From positions 73,081 to 137,080 of the forward strand of contig SHNJ01000007.1 of assembly GCA_004295055.1 (NCBI GenBank): a DNA stretch of 64,000 bases. The letters run 5' to 3'. Made by a program: the position numbers and the translations under genes. The first letter of the stretch is position 1. Each line of letters begins with the position of its first letter. The notes beneath the pieces were generated by a model, which saw nothing but the letters and a program-made list of their open reading frames with translations, was not told the origin of the DNA and did no database searches. Origin of the DNA: Alphaproteobacteria bacterium. Its GTDB lineage: Bacteria; Pseudomonadota; Alphaproteobacteria; SHNJ01. Below, in pieces: positions 2,283 to 24,608 of this stretch.

Positions 2283-3053
2283 ATGAGCAACGTCGTTATC
2301 GTCGAATCGCCGGCCAAGGCCAAGACTATTAATAAGTATCTGGGATCGGATTACACCGTTATCGCCAGTTTCGGTCATATCCGCGATTTGCCATCCAAAG
2401 ACGGTTCGGTCAAGCCGGACGAAGACTTTTCTATGATTTGGAGCCTCGAAGACCGGGGCGAGGCGCGTATTGCCGAGATTATTAAGGCCCTTAAGAATGC
2501 CGATACTTTATATTTAGCCACCGACCCTGACCGGGAAGGGGAAGCCATTTCCTGGCACGTTAAGGAAGTTTTGCAGGAAAAACGGGCGCTTAAGGACGTA
2601 AATGTCCGCCGCGTGACGTTCAATGAAATTACCAAGTCGGCTGTTAAAGACGCTTTTGACCATGCCCGCGACATAGACTCCCAATTGGTCGAAGCATACT
2701 TGGCGCGCCGGGCGCTGGATTATTTGGTGGGATTTAATATCTCACCAATTTTATGGCGCAAATTGCCAGGCTCTCGTTCGGCTGGGCGCGTGCAATCTGT
2801 TGCATTGCGTTTGATTTGTGAACGTGAATCCGAAATCGAAGTATTCAAGCCACAAGAATATTGGAGCATCCTTGGCACATTCAAATCCGCCAAAGGCCAT
2901 AGTTTCGAAGCGCGCTTGACGCATTTCGATAAGAAATTGGACAAATTCGATATCGGTAACAAGGATGCGGCGGATAAAATCCTGGCCGCTCTACAATCGC
3001 AACAATTCACCGTTGACGATATTGAAAAGAAAACCGTTCGCCGCAATCCATAA
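2283..3053 (+). CDS. topA: DNA topoisomerase I, N-terminal part (TOPRIM), ending at an in-frame TAA
   Basis: MSNVVIVESPAKAKTINKYLG and GHIRDLP TOPRIM motifs; the ORF stops at TAA 3051-3053 although the topA frame continues. Confidence 0.85.
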   Translation: MSNVVIVESPAKAKTINKYLGSDYTVIASFGHIRDLPSKDGSVKPDEDFSMIWSLEDRGEARIAEIIKALKNADTLYLATDPDREGEAISWHVKEVLQEKRALKDVNVRRVTFNEITKSAVKDAFDHARDIDSQLVEAYLARRALDYLVGFNISPILWRKLPGSRSAGRVQSVALRLICERESEIEVFKPQEYWSILGTFKSAKGHSFEARLTHFDKKLDKFDIGNKDAADKILAALQSQQFTVDDIEKKTVRRNP

Positions 3054-3122
3054 GCGCCGTTTATCACATCGACCTTACAACAAGAAGCATCGCGGAAACT
3101 TGGTTTAACTGCGTCCCGCACC

Positions 3123-4904
3123 ATGCGTTTGGCGCAGCAATTATATGAAGGCGTGGAAATCGGAGGCGAAACCGTTGGTTTGATCACCTATATGCGTACC
3201 GATGGTATTACATTGTCGGGCGAGGCGATTGGCCAAGCGCGCCGTTTCATCGAACGCGATTTTGGCAAAAATTATTTGCCGGATTCTCCGCGCGCTTATG
3301 TCAGTAAGGCGAAAAACGCGCAAGAAGCGCACGAAGCGATCCGCCCAACCGATATTTTCAGAACGCCGCAATCGATTGAAAAATACCTCGAAGGCGATCA
3401 GTATAAATTGTACGAATTGATTTGGAAACGCACCGTTGCTTGCCAAATGGAAAGCGCGGTATTGGACCAAGTCGGCGCCGATTTAAAAAGCACTGATGGC
3501 AAAAGTATTTTTCGCGCCACCGGTTCCGTGGTGGTGTTCGATGGATTTTTAAAAGTCTATCAAGAAACGCTGGACGAACCTGATGACAAAGAAGAAGGCG
3601 GACGTTTACCGGCGCTGGAAGTCGGCGAAAAAACCGCAAAAGAAAATATTCGCGGCGAACAGCATTTTACCCAGCCGCCGCCAAGATATTCCGAGGCAAG
3701 CCTTGTAAAGAAACTGGAAGAATTGGGCATTGGCCGTCCATCCACCTATGCCAGCATTATTCAGGTATTACAGGACCGCGATTATGTGCGGCTGGATAAA
3801 AAGCGCTTCATCCCGGAAGATCGCGGCCGTGTAGTCACGACGTTCTTGTCGGAATATTTTACCCGTTATGTGGAATATGGATTTACCGCCGGTCTGGAAG
3901 AACAGCTGGATGATATTTCCGCCGGCAATTTAAATTGGAAACAGGTTCTGCGCGATTTTTGGCGCGACTTCACCGGCGCGATTGAATCTTGCAAAGATTT
4001 GACGATCACCCAAGTTATCGACCGGTTGGATGCCGAATTGGGTCCGCATTTCTTTCCGCCGCAAAGTGATGGCCGCGATCCGCGCAAATGTCCGTCCGAC
4101 GGCGGACGTCTTGGTTTGAAACTGGGTAAATTTGGTGCCTTTATCGGTTGTTCCAATTATCCGGAATGCAAATTCACCAAACAATTGGCTGTTGCGCAGG
4201 CGGATGATGGCACTGGCACAGCCGATTTCCCGAACCAAAAGGAACTGGGCGTGGATTCCTTGTCCGGTATGATGGTCACGATCCGCAAAGGCCCGTATGG
4301 ATTTTATGTGCAATTGGGCGAGGCGGTGAAAAAAGGCGAAAAGCCGAAACGCATGGCCGTGCCGAAAAACGTGTCGCCGAACGATATTGATTTGGAAAAG
4401 GCATTGATCTTGCTTGCTTTGCCGCGCGATATCGGCAAACACCCGGAAAGCGGTGAAATGATCGCGGTGGGGCTTGGCCGTTTTGGTCCATTTCTGAAAC
4501 ATGGCGCGAAATACGTTACCTTGCCGCCAACCGAAGATATTTTTACGATCGGTATTAACCGCGCTGTTGTCGTTATTGCCGAAGCCAAAGATAAACCGTC
4601 CAATAACCGCGTTGCCGCAACGCCAGCCAAGGTTTTGGGCAATCACCCAACCGATGGCAAGCCAATCAAATCCGGCAAAGGCCGTTTTGGCCCGTATGTG
4701 CAATGGGGTAAAACCTATGCCTCGATCCCGAAATCGGTCGATCCCGATACGGTGGATTTAAATCAGGCGGTGGAATTGCTGGACGCTAAAATCGCCAAAG
4801 GCGCTGCGAAAAAAGCGGCAGCGGGCGGTGATGCGGATGTGGCGGAAAAACCAGCCAAACCAAAGGCCAAACGCGCGGCGAAGAAAAAAGCCGCTAGCGA
4901 ATAG
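3123..4904 (+). CDS. topA: DNA topoisomerase I, C-terminal part (catalytic Tyr region, zinc-ribbon and Lys-rich tail), same frame as the N-terminal part
   Basis: GLITYMRTDG active-site region and C4 zinc-ribbon cysteines; the 23 codons between 3054 and 3122 translate to APFITSTLQQEASRKLGLTASRT, a conserved TopA segment. Confidence 0.85.
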   Translation: MRLAQQLYEGVEIGGETVGLITYMRTDGITLSGEAIGQARRFIERDFGKNYLPDSPRAYVSKAKNAQEAHEAIRPTDIFRTPQSIEKYLEGDQYKLYELIWKRTVACQMESAVLDQVGADLKSTDGKSIFRATGSVVVFDGFLKVYQETLDEPDDKEEGGRLPALEVGEKTAKENIRGEQHFTQPPPRYSEASLVKKLEELGIGRPSTYASIIQVLQDRDYVRLDKKRFIPEDRGRVVTTFLSEYFTRYVEYGFTAGLEEQLDDISAGNLNWKQVLRDFWRDFTGAIESCKDLTITQVIDRLDAELGPHFFPPQSDGRDPRKCPSDGGRLGLKLGKFGAFIGCSNYPECKFTKQLAVAQADDGTGTADFPNQKELGVDSLSGMMVTIRKGPYGFYVQLGEAVKKGEKPKRMAVPKNVSPNDIDLEKALILLALPRDIGKHPESGEMIAVGLGRFGPFLKHGAKYVTLPPTEDIFTIGINRAVVVIAEAKDKPSNNRVAATPAKVLGNHPTDGKPIKSGKGRFGPYVQWGKTYASIPKSVDPDTVDLNQAVELLDAKIAKGAAKKAAAGGDADVAEKPAKPKAKRAAKKKAASE

Positions 4905-4909
4905 CTCCC

Positions 4910-5692
4910 TTATTTTTCAGCGACTGGGACCCTAGCGTTTCTTAATTTTCTAGTAAGGGAAGTAATGGAGACCGAGTTTGCGGCAGGGTGCTGGCGTTTC
5001 TGTACTTCATGCAAAGCGTCTCGGTACGGAATCGCTGTTGGCACAAGTGTTGTACATAAACGTCCGGCATTATCTATCACGCGATTGGCGCTATTGATGT
5101 TTTGATCAAGGTAGCTTGAGTCTCTTGCTTTACCATAAGCCCGCGCAGCGCGAATCGCATCATCTTGCGTCATGTTTTCAGGTACCAAAGTTTGATAAAC
5201 GCGATCCATTAATGGCCAGTTAAAATTTATATGCCCTTGTCTTGTTTGCAATAAAACTTCGCTTTGGCAGGTACGGACCATATGTTCCCCAATCGATGTT
5301 CTTTGATCCGGCGATAAACCCGTATGCCAGAATTGTACAAAATCTGCGGCGTTACGCGGCTGCGCAAAAAATTGCCTCAATGTGGAATGGGAGTTCCATC
5401 CTCTCCCACCCGGGATTAAATAGGCTAAACAAAAAATATCCAATCCAATGGGCGCATCTTGTTGTGCTTTGAAAGTAGCATCTGCGCGGCAGGCATAAGC
5501 AAGCAAAACTAGTGGTGAAACAGTTCCCTTTTGCCTTTCAATGTGGCTGATTAAGGCATCTGTTGCCACATCTACGGTAGTTTCGATAGTTTGCCCATCA
5601 CCGTCAACACAAACAATTTGCGGCTTGCGCGAAACCAACCATGCTTTCTCAGTGCTTTGGTTATAACCAGTGACATCACATATCCAGCTCAT
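4910..5692 (-). CDS. Hypothetical protein (no recognisable family), 260 aa
   Basis: Long ORF with coding-like composition between topA and the sugar cluster; no motif I can assign. Confidence 0.4.
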   Translation of the reverse strand: MSWICDVTGYNQSTEKAWLVSRKPQIVCVDGDGQTIETTVDVATDALISHIERQKGTVSPLVLLAYACRADATFKAQQDAPIGLDIFCLAYLIPGGRGWNSHSTLRQFFAQPRNAADFVQFWHTGLSPDQRTSIGEHMVRTCQSEVLLQTRQGHINFNWPLMDRVYQTLVPENMTQDDAIRAARAYGKARDSSYLDQNINSANRVIDNAGRLCTTLVPTAIPYRDALHEVQKRQHPAANSVSITSLTRKLRNARVPVAEK

Positions 5693-5819
5693 CTCACCCT
5701 CTATTATAGGTTCGTTTACTGAAATTCAGCCTAATATAAAAATAAGCCGAATCTCAAGAACAAATTCGGTGGCGAAATAATATAACCAAGGATAAGTCAG
5801 GGGTAGAGCTGGGCGGAGA

Positions 5820-6347
5820 TTAGAGTAACGGATAAGCCAAATCCCGTTCCGATATTATTCGATGAGTGATTTTTGGCCAATCGATGCCGATTTTTGGATC
5901 ATCCCAACGCAGGCCTTTGGATAATTCCGGATAATAAAATTCGGCCATTTGATAAAATACTTCACTGTTATCCGTCAGGGTTTGGAATCCGTGCGCGAAA
6001 CCTTCGGGGATATACATCGCACATCTATTTTCGGCGGTCAGTTCCACGCCAAACCATTCCAAGTAAGTATCGGAATCTGGACGGATATCGACCGCGACAT
6101 CGAAAATCCCGCCCATGGTGCAACGTACCAGTTTGGCTTCTTCGCGCGGAGCGGTTTGATAATGCAAACCGCGCAGCGTGCCAATCTTGTGGTTGAACGA
6201 AATATTGCATTGCGCCAATTTTGGATTGAGACCTTGTTTGATAAATTCTTCGCCGCACCAGGTGCGCGCAAAAAAACCGCGCTCGTCTGTTTGCAACTCC
6301 GGCTCGATAACAAATAGCCCTTCGATAGAGGTGGCGATAAATTTCAC
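5820..6347 (-). CDS. rfbC: NDP-4-keto-6-deoxyhexose 3,5-epimerase (RmlC-like cupin)
   Basis: RmlC family motifs (FIEPELQTDERGFF, RGLHYQ, DWP); likely GTG start at 6347 overlapping the upstream stop as TAGTG; the ORF track extends it to 6395. Confidence 0.8.
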   Translation of the reverse strand: MKFIATSIEGLFVIEPELQTDERGFFARTWCGEEFIKQGLNPKLAQCNISFNHKIGTLRGLHYQTAPREEAKLVRCTMGGIFDVAVDIRPDSDTYLEWFGVELTAENRCAMYIPEGFAHGFQTLTDNSEVFYQMAEFYYPELSKGLRWDDPKIGIDWPKITHRIISERDLAYPLL

Positions 6348-7618
6348 TATAATACCTTTACGGTTGGGATCGGTACCACGAACTTGCCGCCCCATTCCTT
6401 GATATAGGCATGGGTGTTAGCGACTTCATCCCGGATATTCCAAGGCAGAATTAATACATAATCCGGCTTGGTTTCCTTGATTTTTTCTGGCGCATAGATT
6501 GGAATATGCGTGCCGGGCAAAAACATATTCTGTTTATGCGGATTCAGATCCACCACATAATCCAGGAAATCGCCGCGAATGCCGCAATAATTCAGCAGCG
6601 TATTGCCCTTGGCCGCGGCGCCATAGCCGGCGATTTTCTTGCCTTGCTGCTTGGCTTCGATCAGGAATTCCAGCAATTTTTGCTTGGTCACGCGGACTTG
6701 TTGCGCGAATTTTTCATAAGTGCTGATTTGATCCAGCCCGAAAGTCAGTTCTTTTTTTAGAACATCTTGATATCCATCGGTCAAGGTCCGGTGGCCCTGA
6801 TGACAGGCGTGAATTCGCAAGCTGCCGCCATGGGTCGGTAATTCCTCGACATCGAAAATAGTTAGGCCGTGATGGGCAAAAACTTTGGAAATGGCGAGCA
6901 GGGAGAAATAACAGAAATGTTCATGATAAATAGTATCAAATTGGTTCTCTTCCATCAATTTCAGCAAATGGGGGAATTCAAAAGTGATAACGCCTTTTGG
7001 CGCCAGCAATATTTTTAATCCCAACACAAAATCGTTCAGATCGGGCACATGCGCCAAAACGTTGTTGCCCAATAATAAATCCGCTTGGCGGCCCTCGGCG
7101 ACCAATTTCTTGGCGCAAGCTACGCCAAAGAATTCAACACGGGTGGGAACGCATTTTTCGATTGCAACCTTGGCAACATTGGCGGCAGGCTCGATGCCCA
7201 AGGCAGGGATTCCGGCCTTTACAAAGTTCTGCAATAAATATCCGTCGTTGCTGGCAATTTCTATCACCAGCGAGCTTTTACCGATACCGTATTGTTTTTG
7301 CATTTGTTCGCAATAACGTTGGCAATGCGCCATCCAGCTGCTGGAATAGGATGAGAAGTATGCATAATCATGCGCAAAAATTTCTTCGGCGGTATGAAAC
7401 TGTTCCAACTGTACCAAGAAACATTTGTCGCAAACATAGGCGTGCAATGGATAAAACGGTTCCATATCTTTCAATTGATCTTCGCGCAAATAACGATTCG
7501 ATGGTGGGCTCATTCCCAAGTCGCACAGTGTTTGCGATAAATGGCCTTGGCAAAAACGGCAGATATTTTTCGGTGCCAGTCTTTCCTGTTTTGCGGCGAG
7601 ATTCGATACATTAGCCAT
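6347..7618 (-). CDS. NDP-hexose C-methyltransferase (TylCIII-like: N-terminal Cys4 zinc ribbon, SAM methyltransferase core, C-methyltransferase C-terminal domain)
   Basis: CRFCQGH...CDKC zinc ribbon, SAM-binding IEIASNDGYLL, long C-terminal domain typical of sugar C-methyltransferases; ATG at 7618 overlaps the rfbG stop (ATGGCTAA). Confidence 0.7.
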   Translation of the reverse strand: MANVSNLAAKQERLAPKNICRFCQGHLSQTLCDLGMSPPSNRYLREDQLKDMEPFYPLHAYVCDKCFLVQLEQFHTAEEIFAHDYAYFSSYSSSWMAHCQRYCEQMQKQYGIGKSSLVIEIASNDGYLLQNFVKAGIPALGIEPAANVAKVAIEKCVPTRVEFFGVACAKKLVAEGRQADLLLGNNVLAHVPDLNDFVLGLKILLAPKGVITFEFPHLLKLMEENQFDTIYHEHFCYFSLLAISKVFAHHGLTIFDVEELPTHGGSLRIHACHQGHRTLTDGYQDVLKKELTFGLDQISTYEKFAQQVRVTKQKLLEFLIEAKQQGKKIAGYGAAAKGNTLLNYCGIRGDFLDYVVDLNPHKQNMFLPGTHIPIYAPEKIKETKPDYVLILPWNIRDEVANTHAYIKEWGGKFVVPIPTVKVL

Positions 7619-8726
7619 GGTGATCCCCATTAATGAATTCCATAATTTGCGAACGGGTAACATTTTCAACATTTTTTCCTTGATGCTGAACGGCGTACCA
7701 GTGGGCCGTTTTTTGAATTGCCTGTTTTGTGGTCCAGCGCGGATTCCAGCCCAGCGTTTTGCGCGCCAGGCGGTTGTCCAACATCAATAATTTCGCTTCG
7801 TATATGCTATTGTCAGGCACATGTTTCCATTCAGCTTTGGACTTTGAACGGGTATTCCATTCTGTAACAAAATGGTCTGCAATCCAACCAACCGTTTGGC
7901 AATCGCGCGCGTCCGGGCCGATATTAAACGATAATAATGGCGATCGGTGTTTGGCGGTTTCCTCTACAATCCGCATGATCGCATAACAAGGTTCCAGCAC
8001 GTGTTGCCAGGGGCGCACCGATTGCGGATGACGCAGAATTAATGGCTGGCCTGTGCCAAAGGCGCGAACCGCATCTGGAATCAGCCTGTCCACCGACCAG
8101 TCGCCACCGCCAATCACATTGCCGGCACGCAATGTGGCGAATGGGATATTTCGCGATTTGAAATAACTATGCCAATAAGACGAGGTTACAATTTCAGCGC
8201 AGGCCTTGCTGGCGCCATACGGTTCGTAACCGCCCAATTTATCATTCTCGCCATAACCGCGCTGAACTTCGATATTTTCGTAAACTTTGTCTGTGGTGAA
8301 AATCAAAACCGCTTGCAGATCTTTGCATTCGCGTGCGGCTTCTAACACATGAATCGTGCCATTGACATTGGTTGAAAATGTATCGACCGGATCTTTGAAG
8401 GCTGGACGGACTAAGGCTTGTGCGCCCAAATGCAGAATAATATGCGGGTTGAATTCAGAAATGGCCTTTTTGACGGCGCCTGCATCACGCAAATCGGCGA
8501 TATGGTGCTTGCCATAATTTTTAATTCCGGAAAGATCATAAAAGCTTGGATCGCTGGATGGGGCTAACGAAAATCCGGCCAACTCGACTTCCATTTCACG
8601 CAGCCAGAAATACAGCCACCCGCCAATAAATCCGGTATGGCCGGTAATTAAAACGCGTTTATTTAGCCAGAAATTTTTATCTAAGGGGTGGGGAAGTTGG
8701 GTGGAACGGGAAAGAAAAGAAAACAT
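7611..8726 (-). CDS. rfbG: CDP-glucose 4,6-dehydratase
   Basis: N-terminal FWLNKRVLITGHTGFIGGWL Rossmann motif, YGASKACAE catalytic YxxxK, size and order after rfbF. Confidence 0.85.
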   Translation of the reverse strand: MFSFLSRSTQLPHPLDKNFWLNKRVLITGHTGFIGGWLYFWLREMEVELAGFSLAPSSDPSFYDLSGIKNYGKHHIADLRDAGAVKKAISEFNPHIILHLGAQALVRPAFKDPVDTFSTNVNGTIHVLEAARECKDLQAVLIFTTDKVYENIEVQRGYGENDKLGGYEPYGASKACAEIVTSSYWHSYFKSRNIPFATLRAGNVIGGGDWSVDRLIPDAVRAFGTGQPLILRHPQSVRPWQHVLEPCYAIMRIVEETAKHRSPLLSFNIGPDARDCQTVGWIADHFVTEWNTRSKSKAEWKHVPDNSIYEAKLLMLDNRLARKTLGWNPRWTTKQAIQKTAHWYAVQHQGKNVENVTRSQIMEFINGDHHG

Positions 8727-8730
8727 GCGC

Positions 8731-9534
8731 CTACCACAGACGCCATGGCGCCTGACCCTTGTTCCACATGTTGTTCAGCATTTCCATTTCGCGGTATGTA
8801 TCCATGCACTGCCAGAATCCGCCATGCTGATAAACGGCCAATTCGTCGTCACGCGCCAATTTCTCCAATACACCATTTTCCAGGCTGACATCGGTTGAAT
8901 CTTCATCGACATGATCGAATGCGGTTTTGTTTAATACCAGGAAGCCGCCATTGATCCAGCCTTCGGCGACTTGCGGTTTTTCGGCAAAACTATTGACCAT
9001 GCCTTCCTGTATGCCAAGTTCGCCAAACCGGGACGAGGGGCGCACGGCGGAAACCGTTCCCAGTTTTTGCGCGCGGCGATGAGTTTCCAATAATGCCTTT
9101 AAATCGATGTTCGATACACCATCGCCATAAGTCGCCATGAAAGTATCGTTGCGTACATATTTCAACGCCCGTTTGATACGCGATCCGGTCAGTGTGTCGC
9201 GGCCAGTCTCAGCCAGAACAATACGCCAGTCTTCACGATAGGTGTTGGTCAGTGTTTCAACATCGCCGGTTGAAAAATCAATGGCAAAATCGCTGTTCCT
9301 AAAGTGATAGTTTAAAAAATAATCGCGAATGGCATCGCCCTTATATCCAAGACACAGAATAAAATTCTTCACGCCAAAAGAATGGTAGTGTTTCATGATG
9401 TGCCACAGCACCGGGCGGCCACCGACCTCAACCATTGGTTTCGGCTTAAATTCGGTTTCTTCGCGCAATCGCGTGCCTAGGCCGCCGCATAAAATAATGG
9501 CGTCCATTTTGCCGATTTCGTTTGGTGCAACCAT
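8731..9534 (-). CDS. rfbF: Glucose-1-phosphate cytidylyltransferase
   Basis: DAIILCGGLGTRL nucleotidyltransferase motif and full-length similarity pattern to RfbF; true start probably the internal ATG (about 9507). Confidence 0.85.
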   Translation of the reverse strand: MVAPNEIGKMDAIILCGGLGTRLREETEFKPKPMVEVGGRPVLWHIMKHYHSFGVKNFILCLGYKGDAIRDYFLNYHFRNSDFAIDFSTGDVETLTNTYREDWRIVLAETGRDTLTGSRIKRALKYVRNDTFMATYGDGVSNIDLKALLETHRRAQKLGTVSAVRPSSRFGELGIQEGMVNSFAEKPQVAEGWINGGFLVLNKTAFDHVDEDSTDVSLENGVLEKLARDDELAVYQHGGFWQCMDTYREMEMLNNMWNKGQAPWRLW

Positions 9535-9610
9535 GTGAATAAAAACCTTAGGGAGGGACTTAATATCCCTTATAGTCTAGTAAAAGTTAAAGAAAGCTTA
9601 AATCGCTAAC

Positions 9611-10126
9611 TTAACCAATAACGTGTTGAACGGAATATTTGTTGTTTGAAAGCACGAATTGGCGGGCAATCCGGCGGACGCTGTCGACCAGAATAGGGGC
9701 GCGATGGTTGATCGACATGGTAATACCTTGGCCTGGCGCCAGGGTACGGATAGTAATGACAAACATAACTATCAAATCTGGTTTTTGAATGCCTAAGCTG
9801 TCGGCGGCCTCTTTTAAATCTTCGGCATCGATCGGCGCCGTATCGGGATCGGTCGGCAATACAATAAAAGACAGGCGAGGTTCCGCCAAACACTGTAATA
9901 AATTGAATTGGGGCATGTTCGGTAAATTAGCCAGGCCAAATTCATGCACATCCGGAAAACCAACAATGCCAACTGGGAAATTGATTGCCAAGCTGCGATC
10001 ATATTCAAAGGTGCCAAGGTTGTTGGTAATCCGTACCAAATTCGGATTATCCGAACTCGATTCGGTTATGGCCGGCGGGGCGGGATCATTTGGGGCCATT
10101 TGGGTTGCACATCCTTGGTTAAACAT
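9611..10126 (-). CDS. fliW: Flagellar assembly factor FliW
   Basis: FliW-like core (LAINFPVGIVGFPDVHEFGL, FIVLP), size about 150-170 aa, located immediately downstream of flgL. Confidence 0.75.
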   Translation of the reverse strand: MFNQGCATQMAPNDPAPPAITESSSDNPNLVRITNNLGTFEYDRSLAINFPVGIVGFPDVHEFGLANLPNMPQFNLLQCLAEPRLSFIVLPTDPDTAPIDAEDLKEAADSLGIQKPDLIVMFVITIRTLAPGQGITMSINHRAPILVDSVRRIARQFVLSNNKYSVQHVIG

Positions 10127-10146: not shown

Positions 10147-11154
10147 TTAACGCAGGAAGTTCACAAGACTTACCTGATTCAGACGGGAAATAGTCATGTA
10201 AGAAGCCTCCAGCTGTGTCTGTTCTGCACTAAGCTTGGCCATGGTTTCTGGAATATCGGCTGCTTGCAAGTCTTGAACCAGATCTTCGATTTTGCCCAAA
10301 TACGCGCCATGCGTGTCTTTGGTATCTAATAACATGCGGCCTTGAGCGCCGATGGTTGCCCTGGTATCGGCCAGACTGCCGATCACCGTAGTCATAATGG
10401 TCGAAGCCCCTTCCAGGCGGTCATGTTGTTCCGCGGTTGGCGCTGCGCCAATAGTGGCTGCCAAACGCAAAGCATAAATCAATTGGGCAAAAGCCGGATT
10501 TGAAGCGGTTGTACCGATGGATACAGATAAATTGTCATCCGCGCGCACAGTTTGTGTTGCGGTATTGCCCATATAGTAACCGAAATATTCGGATGTAGCG
10601 TTTGCACCGATGGTTACTGGAAAAGTGGTCGGTGTAGCGGGCAATGTCGGTACGGTATAAGCGTTCGGAGCGTTGAAATTGGTTGGAATAGGCATTGGCG
10701 CGCCCCAACGAGTGGTGTCTACGGGGCGTGTATTGGTCATGCTGCCGGCAAATAAATATTGGCCGTCCACCTGTTTGTTTAGCGTGCTTTGCAAGCTATC
10801 CAGCATGGACTGTGCTTGGGTAGATAAAGAAATCAAGTCGGCATTGTTGGCATTTAAAGCGCCAGTCAATAATGTTTTAAATTGTTCGGCTATACCTTGG
10901 ATGCTGGTCATCGACGCATCGAATTCGTCAATTTTTCTGTCCGCTATGGTAATATTGTCTTGATATCGTTTGATACGCATGTAACTGTTTTCAAGACTCA
11001 GTGCCTGATTGGCGGAAGAGGCAATATCGGAATAGGTTTCACCTTTACGTCCGGTGGCGGCTTGAATCTGCAATGCGGATACACGCGCTTGCGAGTTTTG
11101 AATCAGCAAGTTAATGCTGGTAAATTTTGAATAATCGCCGACACGGAAAGCCAT
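10147..11154 (-). CDS. flgL: Flagellar hook-associated protein 3 FlgL
   Basis: Flagellin-family N-terminal helix and C-terminal LSRLNQVSLVNFLR; follows flgK. Confidence 0.8.
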   Translation of the reverse strand: MAFRVGDYSKFTSINLLIQNSQARVSALQIQAATGRKGETYSDIASSANQALSLENSYMRIKRYQDNITIADRKIDEFDASMTSIQGIAEQFKTLLTGALNANNADLISLSTQAQSMLDSLQSTLNKQVDGQYLFAGSMTNTRPVDTTRWGAPMPIPTNFNAPNAYTVPTLPATPTTFPVTIGANATSEYFGYYMGNTATQTVRADDNLSVSIGTTASNPAFAQLIYALRLAATIGAAPTAEQHDRLEGASTIMTTVIGSLADTRATIGAQGRMLLDTKDTHGAYLGKIEDLVQDLQAADIPETMAKLSAEQTQLEASYMTISRLNQVSLVNFLR

Positions 11155-11335
11155 GATACTACCTCATTAAGGCTGCGGTAAAAGTCATTTTTGGTTTAGT
11201 TAAAGACGAATTCTTGGAAACATCGCAATTGTCCGCTGGTTTATTGTCAATCAATTCATCCGACAGAAAATTGCGTTTATATAAAGAATAGCTGGCCATT
11301 TTTGTTTTTTTATTCATGATCGTACCCTCCTGTCA

Positions 11336-13102
11336 TTATCCAAGAATTCTGGTTAGTTCATCGAACATTTGGTTAACCGTACGAATTACCTGTGCCGATG
11401 CATTGTATGCATTTTCTAAAACCACCATATTCGACATCTCTTCATCGATGCTTACGCCGCTTTCGCTGCCGATGCGTTTGTCCAGATTGTCAATGGTGGT
11501 TTGCGAAATATCGTAATCGGAATTGGCTGTTGAAGCGAGGCTGGCGTTAAATGAAATTAATGCGGCACTGAAATTGCCTATGGTGTTAGTCATTGCGGGC
11601 ATGCCGCCAACCGCAGAGAATGAGTATTGTGTAGTAAATACTGCGGCAAGACGTTGTGCGACCGATCCATCGCCAGGCGCGACGCCGTTTTCGCCAACAA
11701 CTGCGGTTAAAGATAAATCGCCGCGCGAGATATAGCCTGGGTTGGAAACCAAGGTTGGATTTACGGCCAAAGACAATGCTAAATCCCCATTTACCGCAGG
11801 ATTGTCTGTGCCGGTAAAAAAGTCATTTAGCCCAAAATACTGGGACAAGCCCTGGCCAGTTGCGCCGACTTGGCCGGTATTTTCATTGATTGCAACGCCG
11901 TTTGCCGCATTGGTGGCTTGGATTACTATTTGGCCGCTGGCATTAATAGTGCAAGTGCCGTCCGGACCAAGGGCGGCGTTAATAGCGGTAGTTACCGCGC
12001 CCACGGTCGATGCGACGGCTGGTAAGTTATAATCGACCACACGGACGATTGCACCGGTTGCATCGGTAATCGCAATACGAACCGCGCCAGTACTGGCGGG
12101 AAAAACTGTACCGGCGGCAAGTCCGCTTTGGGTGCCTGTTAAAGTACGTTGGGCCGGAACGCAGGTGCCATCATTGTGTACCGCATTCACGCGATCACGC
12201 AGAGCCAAGGCCATGGTGTCCAATTGGGCCATATAGTTCGGCAAAGTGGTATCGCGCAGAGTAATTAAAGATTTTAATTTGCCATTGGTGACTCGAGAAG
12301 TCAGATCGCCAACGCCACCGATGGTAATCGCACCAAAAGTAGTAGATGGGCTAACTACGGCTGCTGGGGTATAAGCGACTGTTTGTACCGTATCGCCAAC
12401 AAGATTATATCCGCCAATCGTGACCATGGTTCTGCCGTCACTGCGCGTATAGGTGGCAACGTCTACCAATTCGGCTAATTCGCGAATGGCTTGATCGCGG
12501 CGATCTTGGGCATCGGTAACGGACGAACCGCCAGCTGTGGTGTTGATGCCTTGCACGATTTGGTCGTTTAGATCATCGATTTGTGTTGCCAATTCATTAA
12601 TTCTACTAATGGTCGTACCGATTTCTTGGTCTGACTGGCCACGCAAATTGTTGGTGCTGGTTGCCATGGAATTGATTTGACGGGCCATGCGTACGGCGTC
12701 GTTCACCGTATCGGCTTGAGTTTGTGTATTTTGTGGTGTCGCGCCTAAGGCCTCGAACGAAGCGGCAAGGCGGCCGATATTGGCATTAATCGCATTTGCG
12801 GAACCGGGTGTGCCGAAGCTGTCTTGCACGCGAGCTAAATAAGTGCTTTGCACATTGCTTAAACCCATACGGCTCATTTGGCTGCGAAGTTCCCTGGCCA
12901 AACCATCATTGACCCGGCGCGTAACGCCAGCAATATCAACGCCGCCACCAATGCCGTTGGCGGTACGGCTCATTTGCTGAACGATTTTGCGGGTATATCC
13001 AGGGGTATTTACGTTAGAAATATTGTTCGACGTCACCGCCAAGCCGAACTGATTCAAGTTCATGCCGGAAAGAGCATTGCGCATGGCGAGGGTGAGTGAC
13101 AT
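11336..13102 (-). CDS. flgK: Flagellar hook-associated protein 1 FlgK
   Basis: N-terminal MSLTLAMRNALSGMNLNQFGLAVTSNNISNVNTPGYTRK rod/hook family motif and C-terminal MVVLENAYNASAQVIRT. Confidence 0.9.
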   Translation of the reverse strand: MSLTLAMRNALSGMNLNQFGLAVTSNNISNVNTPGYTRKIVQQMSRTANGIGGGVDIAGVTRRVNDGLARELRSQMSRMGLSNVQSTYLARVQDSFGTPGSANAINANIGRLAASFEALGATPQNTQTQADTVNDAVRMARQINSMATSTNNLRGQSDQEIGTTISRINELATQIDDLNDQIVQGINTTAGGSSVTDAQDRRDQAIRELAELVDVATYTRSDGRTMVTIGGYNLVGDTVQTVAYTPAAVVSPSTTFGAITIGGVGDLTSRVTNGKLKSLITLRDTTLPNYMAQLDTMALALRDRVNAVHNDGTCVPAQRTLTGTQSGLAAGTVFPASTGAVRIAITDATGAIVRVVDYNLPAVASTVGAVTTAINAALGPDGTCTINASGQIVIQATNAANGVAINENTGQVGATGQGLSQYFGLNDFFTGTDNPAVNGDLALSLAVNPTLVSNPGYISRGDLSLTAVVGENGVAPGDGSVAQRLAAVFTTQYSFSAVGGMPAMTNTIGNFSAALISFNASLASTANSDYDISQTTIDNLDKRIGSESGVSIDEEMSNMVVLENAYNASAQVIRTVNQMFDELTRILG

Positions 13103-13129: not shown

Positions 13130-13594
13130 CTATAAGCGTTGGTCCAAAGTAACCGACAACGCTTCCTTATTGCCTTTGCCGGCATTGGCAGTAACCGTGG
13201 CCGGGTTGCTGTAGCCGCGTGTGCTAGAAACTTGTTCAATTGCAGCGTCGCGAATTGCCTCAAGAACGCGCAAATTAATGTGTCTTGCGGCCGTCAATAA
13301 ATGGATATTCTCACTGGCGGCTTCATCGAAACGGGCAGCCAGATCGTTCAATAATGCTTTCTGATCCTGGCTGATCGATGCAACTACGGCAGGATTTTCA
13401 CGCAAAACGCGAATCTGATTTTCATAGGCAAAGCTTAGACGGGCTTTTTCGCTTTGCAGGCCGCCGGCAGTGTTATATTTACGGTCCTTCAGCAGGGCAT
13501 TTTCTTCACTGATAACGTGAATTAACTGTTCGCTTACGCCGATCAGCATATCGATAAAATCGCTTTTATTTTCCACGGCTATGGTTTGGGTCAT
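13130..13594 (-). CDS. Putative flagellar export chaperone (FlgN-like), low confidence
   Basis: Small helical protein sandwiched between flgJ and flgK and translationally coupled to flgJ; assignment by position and composition only. Confidence 0.3.
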   Translation of the reverse strand: MTQTIAVENKSDFIDMLIGVSEQLIHVISEENALLKDRKYNTAGGLQSEKARLSFAYENQIRVLRENPAVVASISQDQKALLNDLAARFDEAASENIHLLTAARHINLRVLEAIRDAAIEQVSSTRGYSNPATVTANAGKGNKEALSVTLDQRL

Positions 13595-13905
13595 TTTGCC
13601 GCTCCTTGAATTTTGATCATTTCTTTCAAGATTGCATCGCTAATGCCAAGTCCGCCTTTTTGGCTCATGGCGTTGGCATATTCTTGAACCATCATCGAAC
13701 GAAACATATCTTCGCCATGTCCGCCGCCAAATTGGCTATTGGTTTTGATACCGGCAAACATTTGTTGCATCATTTCATTCAAAAATACCGATTCAAAATC
13801 CTGCGCGGCTTTTTTCATTGCCGGCAGATTTTTAGGCGCTGCTTCCGGCAATTTCGCTTCCGGGCGCATCATATCGGCTGTGGTGGCGGGTAAAGCGATA
13901 TCCAT
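13591..13905 (-). CDS. flgJ: Flagellar rod-binding protein (FlgJ N-terminal domain only / CheL-like)
   Basis: AAQDFESVFLNEMMQQMF rod-binding motif; no muramidase domain, as in alphaproteobacteria. Confidence 0.75.
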   Translation of the reverse strand: MDIALPATTADMMRPEAKLPEAAPKNLPAMKKAAQDFESVFLNEMMQQMFAGIKTNSQFGGGHGEDMFRSMMVQEYANAMSQKGGLGISDAILKEMIKIQGAAK

Positions 13906-15035
13906 TACATTACCTCGATATCGGCTTGCATCGCGCCAGCGGCTTTGATGGCTTGCAGAATGCTGATCATATCGCGTGGACCAATGCCAAGAGCATTCAG
14001 GCCGACCACTAAATCTTGAATCGATATACCGGCGCGCATAATGGTCATGCGTTTTTCCGAATCGTCGTCGACTTCAATCTTGGTGCGGTCAACCGTAGTG
14101 GTTTCCCCGGTTTCGGAAAAAGCGTTCGGTTGGGATACTTGCGGTGTTTCTGTAATTTTGATGGTTAGATTGCCTTGGGCGATTGCAACGGTGTTGATGC
14201 GCACATTTTCACCCATAACGATAATGCCGGATTGTTCATCAATCACGACGCGGGCTAATTGATCCGGTGCAATACGCAATTGTTCAATGTCGGTAATAAA
14301 GGCGACGGAATCTTTTTGGTATTTTTCCGGAACTTCAATAACGATAGTGCCAGGATCATTGGCTTTGGCGGCTTGCGCGCCAACGAAGCTGTTGATCGCT
14401 TCGGCAACCCGGCTGGAGGTGGTGAAGTCCGGATTACGCAAAGCAATTTTTAAAGTCTGCAATTCTTTCATTTGGAATGGCAATTCGCGTTCGATGATCG
14501 CGCCATTGGCAATACGGCCGTTGGTTGGCACGCCGCGCGTTACGCTGCCGCCTTTGCCTTCGGCGGTAAAACCGCCAGCGGCAATTTGGCCTTGAGATAC
14601 GGCGTAGACTTCGCCATCAGCGCCAAGCAGGGGTGTAACCATCAAAGTGCCACCCAGTAAACTTTTAGCATCGCCAATAGTGGCGACCGTAATATCAATT
14701 CGGCTGCCTTGACGGGAAAATGGGGGCAGGGTTGCGGTAACCATGACCGCGGCAACGTTTTTGGTTTTCAAGGCATCGTCCCGGGCGTTGATGCCAAGAC
14801 GTTCCAACATACCGATCAAGCTTTCTTTGGTGAATACAGAAGATGTAAGCGAATCGCCGGTGCCGTTCAAACCGACAACAAGTCCGTAACCGACGAGCAT
14901 ATTGTCGCGAACGCCTTCAAAATCGGCGATATCTTTGATGCGGGACATGGCGGCAACCGGGCTTGCAGGCATAAGGCAAGCGATCAGAGCGACCGATAGA
15001 ATGATTTTTCTGCGAATTTCCCCAAAACTAAACAT
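13905..15035 (-). CDS. flgI: Flagellar P-ring protein FlgI
   Basis: Signal peptide, IKDIADFEGVRDNMLVGYGLVVGLNGTGD and full-length FlgI pattern. Confidence 0.92.
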   Translation of the reverse strand: MFSFGEIRRKIILSVALIACLMPASPVAAMSRIKDIADFEGVRDNMLVGYGLVVGLNGTGDSLTSSVFTKESLIGMLERLGINARDDALKTKNVAAVMVTATLPPFSRQGSRIDITVATIGDAKSLLGGTLMVTPLLGADGEVYAVSQGQIAAGGFTAEGKGGSVTRGVPTNGRIANGAIIERELPFQMKELQTLKIALRNPDFTTSSRVAEAINSFVGAQAAKANDPGTIVIEVPEKYQKDSVAFITDIEQLRIAPDQLARVVIDEQSGIIVMGENVRINTVAIAQGNLTIKITETPQVSQPNAFSETGETTTVDRTKIEVDDDSEKRMTIMRAGISIQDLVVGLNALGIGPRDMISILQAIKAAGAMQADIEVM

Positions 15036-15085: not shown

Positions 15086-15101
15086 TGCGAAGATCGTGCC
15101 A
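15086..15101 (-). promoter_or_regulatory. Candidate sigma54 (-24/-12) promoter for flgI: TGGCAC-N5-TCGCA on the minus strand
   Basis: Reverse complement of 15086-15101 reads TGGCACGATCTTCGCA; about 40-nt leader to the flgI ATG. Confidence 0.45.
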
Positions 15102-18902: not shown

Positions 18903-18904
18903 GA

Positions 18905-19867
18905 CTACTCTGGGACAGGCAATGTGCCAGTTAAAGTTTTAAGGAATTCAACCAGCTTGTGGCGTTCATCAGCCGATAAGGTGCGGCCCAGTTGGTATTT
19001 GGCCATAATATCGACCGCTTCTTCCAAGGTTTTAGCGGTACCATCGTGAAAATAAGGCGCCGTTTTATTTACATTGCGCAGTGATGGAACTTTAAATACA
19101 TATCGATCTTCTTCTCTATGAGTAACGTTAAAGCGTCCATTATCTTCCTGCGTTAAATTTCCACGATCTTTGAAGTAATCACCAACAATGCCGAATTTCT
19201 GGAACATATTGCCGCCGACATTTTCCCCCTGATGGCATGAAGAACATCCCAAATCTTTGAACAATTTATATCCCGCCTTGGCATCTGCAGAGATTGCAAG
19301 TTTCTTGCCCGTTAAGTATTGATCAAATGGCGAATTAATAGGAATAAGGGTGCGTTCGTAATTGGCGATAGCATCTTTGATATTCTTTTCTGTCGGGGGA
19401 GATTTATAAACTTCTCGGAATGCATCGGCATATTCCGGTATTGTTTTCAGCTTGGCAATAATATCGGGCCAAGTATTGCCCATTTCGTCTGGATTTAAAA
19501 TCGGCCCATTAATTTGTTCTTCTAAAGTCGCCGCGCGGCCGTCCCAGAATTGCGCTAAATTAAGTGCGCTGCCCCAAATCGTAGGTACATTGATAAGCAG
19601 GTTTTTTCCGCTTACGCCTTGGATCGGATAAGGTGCATTTAAAGCGCCGCTATTTGCGATATCGTGACAAGAGGAGCAAGAAAGTTTATCGTTCTTGGAC
19701 AGCCTTGGGTCATGGAATAACTTCTGGCCCAATTTTGCACGTCCATGATCCAGTCCTTTTATGGATGTGACGGGTTGAATAGGTTCATTGCTATAAGACG
19801 TGTGATCCAAACCCATGGCGCAGGAAGGAAACAATAAAAGACAAAGAATAAAGTAAATATAGCGCAT
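18905..19867 (-). CDS. Di-heme cytochrome c peroxidase (CCP/MauG family), secreted
   Basis: Signal peptide; two CXXCH motifs (CSSCHD, CSSCHQG), conserved FWDGRA and PYFHDG; stop overlaps the kinase start (ATGA). Confidence 0.85.
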
Positions 19868-19895
19868 TATTTCAACAGGTTTGTTACAGGGAAAA

Positions 19896-20237
19896 TCATT
19901 CTGAGTTGTTGGTGCTGAGTAAGGCGGATTTAACCAGGCCGTATTCTTGTTCTAATAAACGGAGAATTTTTTGCTTTTCCTCCGGGCTGGTCATGTACTG
20001 ATCTTGCGCATTTTTGCATATATCTGCCAGTTTCTCAGCGCCAAGATTGAGGCTGATGCCTTTCCATGCGTGCGCATGGCGTTTCCATTGTTCGGCGTCA
20101 TTTGGGCCTGCAGTTTGCTGCAGATGACTTAGGCATTCTTCCGACGAATCTAGAAAAACATTGAACAATTGCTTTTCCAAATCGATATCGCCACCGGTTA
20201 ATTCCCTAAGATTGGATAAATTCAGAATTTGATTCAT
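19896..20237 (-). CDS. Histidine phosphotransfer (Hpt) domain protein
   Basis: HAHAWKGISLNLGAEKL matches the Hpt H-x-x-KG-S/A signature; 113 aa. Confidence 0.7.
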   Translation of the reverse strand: MNQILNLSNLRELTGGDIDLEKQLFNVFLDSSEECLSHLQQTAGPNDAEQWKRHAHAWKGISLNLGAEKLADICKNAQDQYMTSPEEKQKILRLLEQEYGLVKSALLSTNNSE

Positions 20238-24592: not shown

Positions 24593-24608
24593 TGCAGCTT
24601 CTGTGCCA
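24593..24608 (-). promoter_or_regulatory. Candidate sigma54 promoter for the flgF-flgG-flgA-flgH operon (TGGCAC-N5-CTGCA on the minus strand)
   Basis: Reverse complement of 24593-24608 is TGGCACAGAAGCTGCA; a plus-strand TGGAAG-N5-TTGCA element (24581-24596) overlaps it. Confidence 0.45.

Follow-up and report, generated by a model that had tools for sequence, protein, structure and literature searches.

Identity and organization of the cassette

Which activated sugar do four genes lying directly downstream of fliW supply, and to what would it be attached? We addressed these questions in a 64-kb window, by which we mean the whole stretch of DNA analyzed, from an alphaproteobacterium that is uncultured. 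The first-pass annotation had placed four CDP-sugar enzymes at 5820-9534 on the minus strand, and both the identities and the coordinates were borne out by NCBIfam, Pfam and PDB matches:

8731-9534, minus strand: rfbF, glucose-1-phosphate cytidylyltransferase, 267 aa (TIGR02623, PDB 1tzf)
7611-8726, minus strand: rfbG, CDP-glucose 4,6-dehydratase, 371 aa (TIGR02622, PDB 1wvg and 1rkx)
6347-7618, minus strand: TylC3/TcaB9-type NDP-hexose C-methyltransferase, 423 aa, ATG at 7618 (Pfam, PDB)
5820-6347, minus strand: RmlC-type NDP-4-keto-6-deoxyhexose epimerase, 175 aa, GTG start at 6347 (TIGR01221, PDB RmlC)

RfbF scored 329 bits against TIGR02623 (cut-off 300) and matched 1tzf at 1.4e-78. RfbG scored 396 bits against TIGR02622 (cut-off 278), matched 1wvg at 1.2e-90 and 1rkx at 1e-86, and carries the GxxGxxG and YxxxK motifs as ITGHTGFIGG and YGASK. 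The methyltransferase matches PF08421 (the zinc domain), PF13489 and PF08484; C20, C23, C63 and C66 and the motif Y231-H232-E233-H234 are invariant in 17 homologues, and its best PDB matches, MtmC 4rv9 (1.5e-82), KijD1 5t64 and TcaB9 3ndi, are all C3-methyltransferases. The RmlC-like protein scored 196 bits against TIGR01221 (cut-off 156), matched PDB RmlC entries at about 1e-50, and aligns to RmlC at RGLH, KLVR and the Tyr within YQMAEFY.

The translational coupling and the two start/stop overlaps claimed earlier can be read directly from the DNA: ATGGCTAA at 7618-7611 contains the methyltransferase ATG and the rfbG TAA, and TAGTG at 6349-6345 contains the methyltransferase TAG and the rmlC GTG. 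The spacing between rfbF and rfbG is 4 nt. The cassette is flanked by the following features:

13905-15035, minus strand: flgI, head of the co-directional array (Pfam)
13591-13905, minus strand: rod-binding FlgJ-like gene (Pfam)
13130-13594, minus strand: 154-aa unknown ORF in the head of the array
11336-13102, minus strand: flgK, hook-associated protein 1 (TIGR02492, 282 bits)
11159-11317, minus strand: 52-aa ORF between flgK and flgL, with a GGAGGG ribosome-binding site
10147-11154, minus strand: flgL, hook-filament junction protein (Flagellin_N/C, TIGR02550)
9611-10126, minus strand: fliW, flagellin-binding assembly factor (PF02623, 2.3e-18), 76 nt upstream of rfbF
5747-5769, minus strand: terminator-like hairpin and T-run, 50 nt past the rmlC stop (consensus match only)
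4910-5692, minus strand: orphan 260-aa ORF in a variable slot between rmlC and topA

From flgI to rmlC, 11 genes run in one direction with a largest gap of 76 nt, and neither a terminator-like nor a sigma-70-like site was found in the fliW-rfbF gap (9535-9610). A weakly suggestive sigma-54-like TGGCAC-N5-TCGC lies at 15101-15087 on the minus strand, 52 nt ahead of flgI. The stem of the hairpin after rmlC, CCGAATTTGTTCTTGAGATTCGG, is 8 bp long and precedes CTTATTTTTA; the hairpin is identical in L001, a close relative. Judging from spacing, the cassette may be co-transcribed with the late flagellar operon and would then be expressed as the tail of flgI...flgK-flgL-fliW. The 52-aa ORF has no Pfam match, and a gene of 51-53 aa is called at its position in L001, L004 and L005.

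Predicted sugar chemistry

On these assignments, RfbF would form CDP-activated glucose from glucose-1-phosphate and CTP, RfbG would convert it to CDP-4-keto-6-deoxy-D-glucose, and the TcaB9/TylC3-type enzyme would use SAM to add a C-methyl group to the carbon adjoining the 4-keto group. Because the closest solved relatives all methylate C3, this is the most likely site, C5 also being possible. The RmlC-type enzyme would epimerize the remaining enolizable center; with C3 quaternary, that center would be C5 and the product an L-series sugar.

Comparable chemistry occurs in the antibiotic sugar pathways to dTDP-L-mycarose and its kin (TylC3/EryBIII, TylK/EryBVII, TylC2/EryBIV; MtmC, TcaB9, KijD1), in which a three-domain zinc methyltransferase C3-methylates an NDP-4-keto-6-deoxyhexose with SAM before an RmlC-family 5-epimerase acts. 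Those pathways differ in that their dTDP sugars are first 2-deoxygenated or 3-aminated and are destined for polyketide aglycones, and in that they include a 4-ketoreductase. With the CDP-3,6-dideoxyhexose and yersiniose pathways, the cassette has in common the first two enzymes (RfbF/DdhA and RfbG/DdhB) and CDP-4-keto-6-deoxy-D-glucose. The later steps there are carried out by RfbH and RfbI and then by RfbS, RfbE, AscE (a 5-epimerase that resembles RmlC and works on a CDP sugar) or YerE/YerF, whereas the window has no E1/E3 (RfbH/RfbI) genes for 3-deoxygenation. Yersiniose is made by 3-deoxygenation and addition of a two-carbon branch by a ThDP-dependent enzyme rather than a SAM methyltransferase; the cassette has a SAM methyltransferase and no ThDP branching enzyme, and the likeness to yersiniose proposed in the first-pass annotation therefore fails past the first two steps. 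Chemistry of the predicted kind is seen in the CDP-vinelose of Azotobacter vinelandii, 6-deoxy-3-C-methyl-2-O-methyl-L-talose, a CDP-linked 3-C-methyl, O-methylated 6-deoxy-L-hexose, which, unlike the sugar we propose below, is not an amino sugar. The further claim that the four genes together would yield a C-methylated 6-deoxyhexose does not hold for a finished sugar, as they include no C4 ketoreductase, while non-flagellar cassettes couple a putative one to rmlC.

Conservation of the fliW-linked cassette

The fliW-rfbF-rfbG-methyltransferase-rmlC junction is kept in at least five close relatives, among them L001, L004, L005/L088 and L090, with identities of 73-93% for the methyltransferase, 60-88% for FlgL and 87-96% for RfbF. 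The topA-dprA-plsY-pyrB synteny is likewise conserved within this clade, so gene order within the clade alone carries little weight. Against L001, omega was 0.024 for rfbF, 0.08 for rfbG, 0.036 for the methyltransferase and 0.033 for rmlC at a dS of 0.8-1.2, a constraint like that on flgI, flgK and flgL. As judged by these values (0.02-0.08), the four genes are functional and under strong purifying selection.

A second clade of alphaproteobacteria, itself deeply diverged, has the same junction (L094, L095, L167/L168 and L169), with identities to the window of 34-38% for FlgK, 32% for FlgL and 42-44% for FliW. There, the cassette has flgK-flgL-fliW on one side and flagellin-fliD-fliS-fliK-flgD-flgE on the other, and is part of an island that also encodes a LegC/PseC/DesI-like DegT aminotransferase (384 aa), a NeuD/VioB-family acetyltransferase (TIGR03570, 195 bits, cut-off 161), a CmcI-like methyltransferase (PF04989) and a transferase of about 855 aa combining TPR and PF13844 (GT41), whose gene lies next to that for flagellin and points away from it. 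This island contains no 4-ketoreductase. Downstream of rmlC, the two clades differ completely, with topA in the window clade and island genes in the second.

In neighbor-joining trees, the fliW-linked cassettes of the two clades paired as sisters with values of 100/100 for RfbF, 74/100 for RfbG and 100/100 for the concatenate, but the single-gene trees of the methyltransferase and RmlC did not join them (0/100 and 10/100, respectively). For these two proteins, sequences from outside stand nearer to either clade (64-65%) than the two clades stand to one another (57-60%), a result that counts against a flagellar reading of the cassette.

None of the second clade's additional genes was found near the window's cassette. 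Pfam searches of every ORF in the 64 kb that reaches 130 aa detected no glycosyltransferase, flagellin or second SDR, and tblastn of the window with the relatives' island proteins gave no match and no relics, in keeping with the earlier observation that the window lacks a glycosyltransferase. The 64 kb likewise contain no DegT, acetyltransferase or reductase gene, and no polysaccharide export or polymerase gene. The 10-kb flanks in relatives of the window clade have no flagellin, glycosyltransferase, DegT, acetyltransferase or reductase gene, and among the best 120 matches to the relatives' TPR-GT41 protein, none was an orthologue attributable to the window clade. The link to flagellin is therefore comparative, not direct, and is made here only by homology of position.

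A proposed role in flagellin glycosylation

On balance, we lean toward the view that the cassette encodes the early steps of a pathway to a CDP-linked, C-methyl-branched 4-amino-4,6-dideoxyhexose used in flagellin O-glycosylation, the remainder being encoded elsewhere. Since relatives carry the same four genes inside a full flagellin-glycosylation island, the activated methyl-branched sugar, by analogy, most probably ends up on the flagellar filament. Genes lying elsewhere than in the window would supply the enzymes that finish the CDP-4-keto product; in line with the relatives, these would be a C4-aminotransferase of the DegT family, an N-acetyltransferase of the NeuD/VioB type and a methyltransferase resembling CmcI. 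A cytoplasmic TPR and GT41-type glycosyltransferase would then move the finished sugar to flagellin Ser/Thr residues. Because the flagellar relatives handle C4 with an aminotransferase and an N-acetyltransferase, a 4-acetamido-4,6-dideoxy C-methyl sugar is the more likely end product. The predicted glycan unit is 4-acetamido-4,6-dideoxy-3-C-methyl-(O-methyl)-hexose, for which the predicted residue mass is about 201.10 Da when the O-methyl group is missing and 215.12 Da when it is present. The original idea of a donor for a flagellar or surface glycan thus gains real support, of a comparative kind, from the fliW-linked cassette in the relatives' island with flagellin and TPR-GT41.

Split systems of this kind have a precedent. 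In Pseudomonas syringae, the flagellin sugar is a 4-amino-4,6-dideoxyhexose made via VioA, VioB and VioM, and its island is separate from the flagellar cluster (PMC3927599). The Pseudomonas systems (viosamine genes vioA, vioB, vioM and vioT of P. syringae pv. tabaci; the P. aeruginosa PAK island) share with our proposal an origin from NDP-4-keto-6-deoxyglucose and the use of a DegT-type C4 aminotransferase, a NeuD/VioB-family acyltransferase and a methyltransferase (PMC3927599). They differ in using dTDP rather than CDP, in having no C-methyltransferase or RmlC-type epimerase, and in their transferases, VioT and Fgt1/2, whereas the window covers the first four steps only, with no aminotransferase, acyltransferase or transferase found. 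FlmG of Caulobacter crescentus, an alphaproteobacterial TPR and GT-B flagellin glycosyltransferase, performs cytoplasmic O-glycosylation, and the sister-clade TPR and GT41 proteins resemble it by architecture, with an N-terminal TPR (flagellin-binding) region and a C-terminal GT-B-type domain (PMC7591256). The FlmG system differs in its pseudaminic acid donor (PMC7591256), and the window has no protein of this architecture. In other phyla, rfbF and rfbG have been predicted in flagellin-glycosylation islands (FGIs), namely Enterobacteriaceae FGI type 23 (PMC4875605) and the CDP-paratose FGI of C. butyricum DSM 10702 (PMC13317340); both are bioinformatic CDP-sugar predictions and, unlike the case here, neither paper mentions a C-methyltransferase.

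Alternative explanations

Rather unlikely, in our view, is that the cassette serves polysaccharide synthesis (LPS O-antigen, capsule or other) by making a C-methyl 6-deoxyhexose, which is apparently its role in most other bacteria, with the 4-ketoreductase and glycosyltransferases encoded elsewhere and the adjacency to fliW accidental. In 80 loci from many other phyla, the same methyltransferase family occurs with rfbF, rfbG and rmlC inside polysaccharide clusters, next to GT2, GT1, Wzm/Wzt ABC transporter, DegT, PIG-L and DUF4910 genes. A flagellar gene lies within 10 kb in 0 of the 80, a finding that goes against our preferred reading and shows a flagellar setting to be atypical for this cassette. 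In at least 15 loci, the start of an SDR gene overlaps rmlC or directly follows it. The resulting and widespread five-gene cassette, rfbF-rfbG-C-methyltransferase-rmlC-SDR (for example in L078 (Bosea), L085, L031, L046, L083, L099 and L116), matches the window's in the kind and order of its first four genes, with 57-66% methyltransferase identity, but differs in its coupled SDR, a putative 4-ketoreductase, in its GT2/Wzm/Wzt neighbors and in having no flagellar genes nearby; no characterized product was found for it. A polysaccharide role would also fit a window without flagellin or a flagellin glycosyltransferase. Against it, no reductase is coupled to rmlC here, the 64 kb hold no export or polymerase gene, the RfbF and concatenate trees join the window's cassette to the island-embedded rather than the polysaccharide-cluster cassettes, and the fliW-rfbF junction has been held in two deeply diverged clades despite wholly different genes after rmlC.

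It is improbable that an ancestral flagellin-glycosylation island was split by rearrangement and left the cassette stranded, its end product unused or its keto-sugar used directly or otherwise. The C4-modifying enzymes and transferase of the sister clade are indeed missing beside the cassette, and the variable orphan ORF and topA take up the island side. However, at least five diverged genomes retain all four genes in intact form, with omega of 0.02-0.08 at a dS of about 1, catalytic motifs are kept, there are no pseudogene relics, and flagellin sugar genes can be split between loci (PMC3927599). Quite improbable, finally, is a target other than flagellin made alongside late flagellar parts (sheath, pilin, S-layer protein, FlgL, FlgK or FliD): in the window clade, the cassette's neighbors are fliW, flgL and flgK, not a flagellin gene, and TPR-GT41 homologues are reported to act on non-flagellin targets elsewhere, such as a cyanobacterial pilin (PMC9306852), but the sister clade's transferase gene divergently adjoins the flagellin gene, and direct evidence for another target is nil.

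The orphan 260-aa ORF beyond the hairpin is probably not part of the sugar pathway. It matches nothing in Pfam or NCBIfam and has just two homologues among 5.8 billion proteins; it is absent from L004, diverged in L005 and replaced in L090. Its AlphaFold model is mainly helical, with a pLDDT of 47.

Identity of the four cassette genes

Curated family models and solved structures agree with the first-pass annotation on the names of four consecutive minus-strand genes at 5820-9534, a glucose-1-phosphate cytidylyltransferase, a CDP-glucose 4,6-dehydratase, a sugar C-methyltransferase, and an RmlC-type epimerase.

The four cassette genes, in order of transcription, with their best-matching models and structures
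8731-9534, minus strand: rfbF; TIGR02623 329 bits (cut-off 300); PDB 1tzf 1.4e-78 over residues 11-267
7611-8726, minus strand: rfbG; TIGR02622 396 bits (cut-off 278); PDB 1wvg 1.2e-90 and 1rkx 1e-86
6347-7618, minus strand: C-methyltransferase; PF08421, PF13489, and PF08484; MtmC (4rv9) 1.5e-82, KijD1 (5t64), and TcaB9 (3ndi)
5820-6347, minus strand: RmlC-type epimerase (rmlC); TIGR01221 196 bits (cut-off 156); RmlC PDB entries at about 1e-50

RfbF matches the glucose-1-phosphate cytidylyltransferase model (RfbF/DdhA) over its full length and exceeds the curated equivalog threshold. RfbG is likewise an equivalog-level match to CDP-glucose 4,6-dehydratase (RfbG/DdhB), and the models for dTDP- and GDP-sugar dehydratases score far under their own cut-offs on this protein. 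Read from the DNA, its GxxGxxG NAD site is ITGHTGFIGG and its catalytic YxxxK is YGASK. In the RmlC-type epimerase, the RGLH and KLVR stretches and the tyrosine of YQMAEFY align with the RmlC structures, and the catalytic His, Lys, and Tyr are retained (TIGR01221/PF00908).

The methyltransferase has three domains, an N-terminal four-cysteine zinc domain (PF08421, 81.8 bits), a class I SAM domain (PF13489, 49.9 bits), and a C-terminal Methyltransf_14 domain (PF08484, 222 bits), all of which exceed their cut-offs, and it aligns end to end with MtmC. Across 17 homologues, the zinc cysteines C20, C23, C63, and C66 are invariant, as is the stretch N225-Q-F-D-T-I-Y-H-E-H234, which aligns with NEFDTIYHEH of MtmC. 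We take DTIYHEH to be the surroundings of the catalytic histidine, by its role in TcaB9. As the closest solved structures are all sugar C3-methyltransferases, methylation at C3 is favored over C5 for this predicted enzyme, and the rfbF/rfbG context suggests that its nucleotide specificity would be for CDP.

The overlaps of start and stop codons that had been described at two junctions were confirmed in the DNA: in ATGGCTAA at 7618-7611 the methyltransferase start overlaps the rfbG stop, and in TAGTG at 6349-6345 the methyltransferase stop overlaps the GTG start of rmlC. The longest-ORF starts at 7672 and 6395 are unlikely; the overlapping codons are where the family models begin. The spacing between rfbF and rfbG is 4 nt, and the G+C content over the cassette is unremarkable.

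The cassette closes a run of flagellar genes

On the same strand, 5′ of the cassette, lie flgI, a FlgJ-like rod-binding gene, a gene for a 154-aa protein of unknown function, flgK, a 52-aa ORF, flgL, and fliW. Counting the cassette, 11 co-directional genes extend between flgI (15035) and the rmlC stop codon (5820), the widest gap being the 76 nt between fliW and rfbF, and a hairpin with a T-run follows rmlC at 5769-5747. No terminator-like site was found between fliW and rfbF, and the spacer holds no motif conserved across the close relatives that keep this junction (hereafter the window clade). A scan with a sigma-70 pattern gave fewer matches than in shuffled sequence, and a sigma-28-like pattern showed no enrichment. 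Sigma-54-like elements stand on the appropriate strand before flgI (15087-15101, minus, TGGCAC-N5-TCGC) and before flgF (24594-24608, minus, TGGCAC-N5-CTGC), and these would fit Caulobacter-style class III promoters; a relaxed form of the pattern, with 154 matches in the window, is too frequent to weigh. The window, which comes from an uncultured alphaproteobacterium, also encodes FliX, further flagellar genes (flgH, flgA, flgG, flgF, fliL, fliM, fliP, flgB/C, fliR, and flhB), two-component regulators, and housekeeping genes.

Two smaller features of this region were noted. The 52-aa ORF between flgK and flgL (11159-11317, minus) has a strong GGAGGG ribosome-binding site, and a gene of 51-53 aa is called at the same position in three window-clade loci (L001, L004, and L005). 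It has no Pfam match, is not CsrA-like, and is a candidate small regulator or chaperone for the flagellum. In both the window and L001, dksA/fliX and flgH are separated by an inserted block (16350-21241, minus) whose products are a DAHL-domain hybrid histidine kinase, a di-haem cytochrome c peroxidase, an Hpt protein, and a response regulator; L004 and L005 lack the block at this position.

The cassette is a widespread module with an unusual flagellar address

With the methyltransferase as query (57-64% identity), we sampled 80 loci in species-representative genomes spread over many phyla, and with RfbF a further 80 metagenomic loci. The order rfbF-rfbG-methyltransferase-rmlC is frequent among them, and none of the 80 methyltransferase-sampled loci has a flagellar gene within 10 kb, a result that holds when the threshold is relaxed. 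As a module the cassette is thus widespread, and its flagellar location is unusual. At least 15 loci (including L031, L040, L046, L078, L083, L085, L099, L107, L116, L158, and L166) carry an Epimerase-family SDR of 303-331 aa that starts at or just past the rmlC stop codon and is expected to be a 4-ketoreductase; the window version is without this fifth gene. The usual neighbors in those loci, DUF4910/M28-like proteins, PIG-L, a DAO-type oxidoreductase, GT2, GT1, Wzm/Wzt, and DegT, mark them as putative polysaccharide clusters.

Three of these neighbors co-occur with the methyltransferase across the non-flagellar loci L007-L086 (for example L007:12993-14312, L007:17172-17831, and L012:1380-2594). 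A DUF4910/DUF2172/HTH_47 (M28 peptidase-like) protein is present in 37 of 77 loci, a PIG-L deacetylase in 23, and a DAO-type FAD oxidoreductase in 21; as a set they make up a conserved and apparently uncharacterized module for sugar modification.

The pathway in the window is incomplete

Within the 64-kb window we found no flagellin gene, glycosyltransferase, DegT aminotransferase, or second sugar SDR, rfbG being the sole SDR. The lack of a glycosyltransferase, already stated in the first-pass annotation, was borne out by Pfam scans and tblastn. Dedicated flagellin glycosyltransferases (Maf, FlmG/TPR-GT, Fgt, etc.) are absent from the window and from the 10-kb flanks of the window-clade loci, and no ketoreductase or aminotransferase for the C4 step to a stable donor was found in the window. 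Going by their assignments, the four enzymes would end at a CDP-4-keto sugar, leaving the predicted pathway incomplete here. The earlier interpretation holds in part: the product proposed there, a finished CDP-linked C-methylated 6-deoxyhexose, gives way to a 4-keto intermediate since there is no C4 step, and the analogy to yersiniose was dropped.

Candidates for the missing enzymes were rejected. The 1138-aa TPR-like ORF at 28255-31671 (plus) carries a signal peptide and lacks a GT domain. It lies within the flagellar cluster, contains a Pro/Ala/Glu-rich linker, matches TPR models only below threshold, belongs to no Pfam family, and may serve the flagellum as an accessory protein in the periplasm. 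The 260-aa orphan ORF between rmlC and topA (4910-5692, minus) was rejected as a reductase, transferase, or any other pathway member: it has no Pfam or NCBIfam match, and an AlphaFold model from a two-sequence alignment is mostly helical (pLDDT 47), with no Rossmann or GT fold. Only two cluster matches to it were found among 5.8 billion proteins, and its slot is variable, being empty in L004, filled by a 311-aa protein of 24% identity in L005, and by an opposite-strand 269-aa ORF in L090.

Distant relatives carry the cassette inside predicted flagellin-glycosylation islands

The window clade (L001/L092, L004/L087, L005/L006/L088/L089, and L090) keeps the order from flgI to flgK-flgL-fliW-rfbF-rfbG-methyltransferase-rmlC, with methyltransferases 73-93% and FlgL 60-88% identical. 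This conservation says little, because the order topA-dprA-plsY-pyrB beyond the cassette is likewise kept. In the window itself, topA (2283-4904, plus) is split into two same-frame ORFs by an in-frame TAA at 3051-3053 (...KKTVRRNP*APFITSTLQQ...). As topA is intact in the relatives (874-882 aa) and, at 873 aa, in L171, an independent Logan assembly from the same sample series, the stop is probably a MAG consensus error or strain variant and not the mark of a pseudogene.

The decisive evidence comes from a second clade of distant alphaproteobacterial loci (L094, L095, L167/L168, and L169), which keeps the fliW-rfbF-rfbG-methyltransferase-rmlC junction with a wholly different far side. Compared with the window, L094 and L095 (G+C 57-64%) show identities of 34-38% for FlgK, 32% for FlgL, 42-44% for FliW, and 67-69% for RfbF. 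Here the cassette lies between flgL-fliW and flagellin-fliD-fliS. Convergent on it are a 384-aa DegT aminotransferase, whose best models are LegC, PseC, ArnB, and DesI and which is not RfbH-like, and a NeuD/PglB/VioB-family acetyltransferase (TIGR03570 195 bits, cut-off 161). Beyond these lie a PF04989 (CmcI/rhamnosyl-O-methyltransferase-like) methyltransferase and, in L094, L095, L167, and L169, a protein of 850-870 aa in which TPR repeats at the N terminus are joined to a PF13844 (GT41) domain at the C terminus. A divergently oriented flagellin gene (486 aa) directly follows the TPR-GT41 gene in L167/L168 and L169, ahead of fliD and fliS, and L167/L168 continue with fliK, flgD, and flgE. Both in where it lies and in the genes it holds, the second-clade locus matches a classical flagellin-glycosylation island. 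No 4-ketoreductase was found in these islands; C4 of the predicted sugar is evidently transaminated and N-acetylated, which would account for a fliW-linked cassette without a reductase.

An additional gene, at L167:15153-16676 (minus; same coordinates in L168), lies in the island between DegT and rmlC. It encodes a 507-aa fusion of TPR and radical-SAM domains that may carry out an additional modification of the sugar or the flagellin.

A likely common origin of the two fliW-linked cassettes

Neighbor-joining trees were built from 30 loci carrying all four genes, with 100 bootstrap replicates. Each fliW-linked clade received 96-100% support. RfbF and the concatenate each united the two clades in 100/100 replicates and RfbG did so in 74/100, against just 0/100 with the methyltransferase and 10/100 with RmlC. 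Pairwise identities run the same way: RfbF is 67-69% identical between the clades versus at most 62% to outsiders, whereas the methyltransferase is 57-60% identical between clades and 64-65% to outsiders, and RmlC 54-57% and 61-62%, respectively. The discordance of the last two could be due to fast evolution, composition bias, or gene replacement. Because both clades share the junction and RfbF unites them, a common origin of the two cassettes seems likely.

Proposed pathway and alternatives

Based on the sequence assignments, RfbF would convert glucose 1-phosphate and CTP to CDP-glucose, and RfbG would convert this to CDP-4-keto-6-deoxyglucose. By the chemistry of their families, the methyltransferase would then perform a SAM-dependent C-methylation via the enolate adjoining the 4-keto group, most probably at C3, and the RmlC-type enzyme would epimerize the remaining acidic center. 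The 4-keto product probably goes on to be made into a 4-acetamido sugar: the genes of the second clade point to C4 transamination, N-acetylation, and O-methylation as the next steps, and to a TPR-GT41 enzyme that would bind flagellin by its TPR domain and transfer the sugar to it. The TPR domain of FlmG binds flagellin in Caulobacter (PMC7591256).

Our tentative reading, to which we give somewhat less than an even chance, is that, in a lineage of flagellated, uncultured alphaproteobacteria, flagellin is O-glycosylated by a TPR-GT41 enzyme with a CDP-activated, C-methyl-branched 4-acetamido-4,6-dideoxyhexose and that the pathway is split in the window clade. Just as tentative is its corollary that the dehydratase/C-methyltransferase/epimerase half stays joined to the flgK-flgL-fliW operon, which would time the supply of sugar to the assembly of the filament. 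The flagellar glycan donor proposed in the first-pass annotation is strengthened by the second-clade islands; in the window, which has neither flagellin nor transferase, the acceptor is inferred, and the cassette stands directly 3′ of flgL-fliW, glycosylation islands being classically located between flgL and fliC.

Searches by tblastn with DegT, the acetyltransferase, the CmcI-like methyltransferase, GT41, flagellin, FliD, FliS, and the reductase of the Bosea locus L078 found no relics in the window or its clade. None of the best 120 matches to the TPR-GT41 protein of L095 was assignable to the window clade; the protein P0145, labelled 'Alphaproteobacteria bacterium', stands in an unrelated gene context. 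Selection ratios (omega) against L001, at dS 0.8-1.2, are 0.024 for rfbF, 0.080 for rfbG, 0.036 for the methyltransferase, and 0.033 for rmlC, with 0.031-0.064 for flgI, flgK, flgL, and fliW and 0.20 for the orphan 260-aa ORF. Given the low ratios and the lack of island-gene relics, the cassette must, on this evidence, be in use, with its putative partner genes elsewhere in the genome.

A possible alternative is that the sugar goes to LPS or capsule, its apparent fate in most cassette-carrying bacteria; that no acceptor system is visible in the window is compatible with this destination as well. Another late-flagellar glycoprotein is also a possible target. That the cassette is a stranded remnant is disfavored by the same low omega values.

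Flagellin glycans affect filament assembly, motility, and phage and immune recognition, and their chemistry is known for few cultured pathogens only. The window alone is a well-annotated partial pathway with an inferred acceptor; the main value of the finding, within the known framework of flagellin-glycosylation islands, is the complete islands uncovered in relatives. Together with those in L167, L169, L094, and L095, the locus offers a predicted gene set, concrete enough for testing, for a flagellin sugar of a new kind, CDP-linked, C-methyl-branched, and 4-aminated. The rfbF-rfbG-C-methyltransferase-rmlC cassette, with or without the SDR, is very widespread and biochemically uncharacterized, and its gene contexts indicate at least two fates, polysaccharide and flagellin. 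For glyco-engineering, its enzymes would offer a useful source of branched deoxysugars other than the antibiotic pathways of actinomycetes.

Our literature search found no paper on vinelose and none connecting a C-methyltransferase, CDP-glucose, and flagellin; if flagellin does carry the proposed sugar, then, as far as the literature found shows, no branched-chain sugar and no chemically defined CDP-dependent donor would have preceded it on a flagellin. CDP-sugar genes have been predicted in flagellar islands of Erwinia/Pantoea (PMC4875605) and Clostridium butyricum (PMC13317340), but no C-methyltransferase is mentioned there. Among experimentally defined systems, the nearest analogue is the dTDP-N-acyl-2-O-methyl-viosamine pathway for Pseudomonas syringae flagellin (VioA/VioB/VioM), which is likewise encoded at a distance from the flagellar cluster (PMC3927599).
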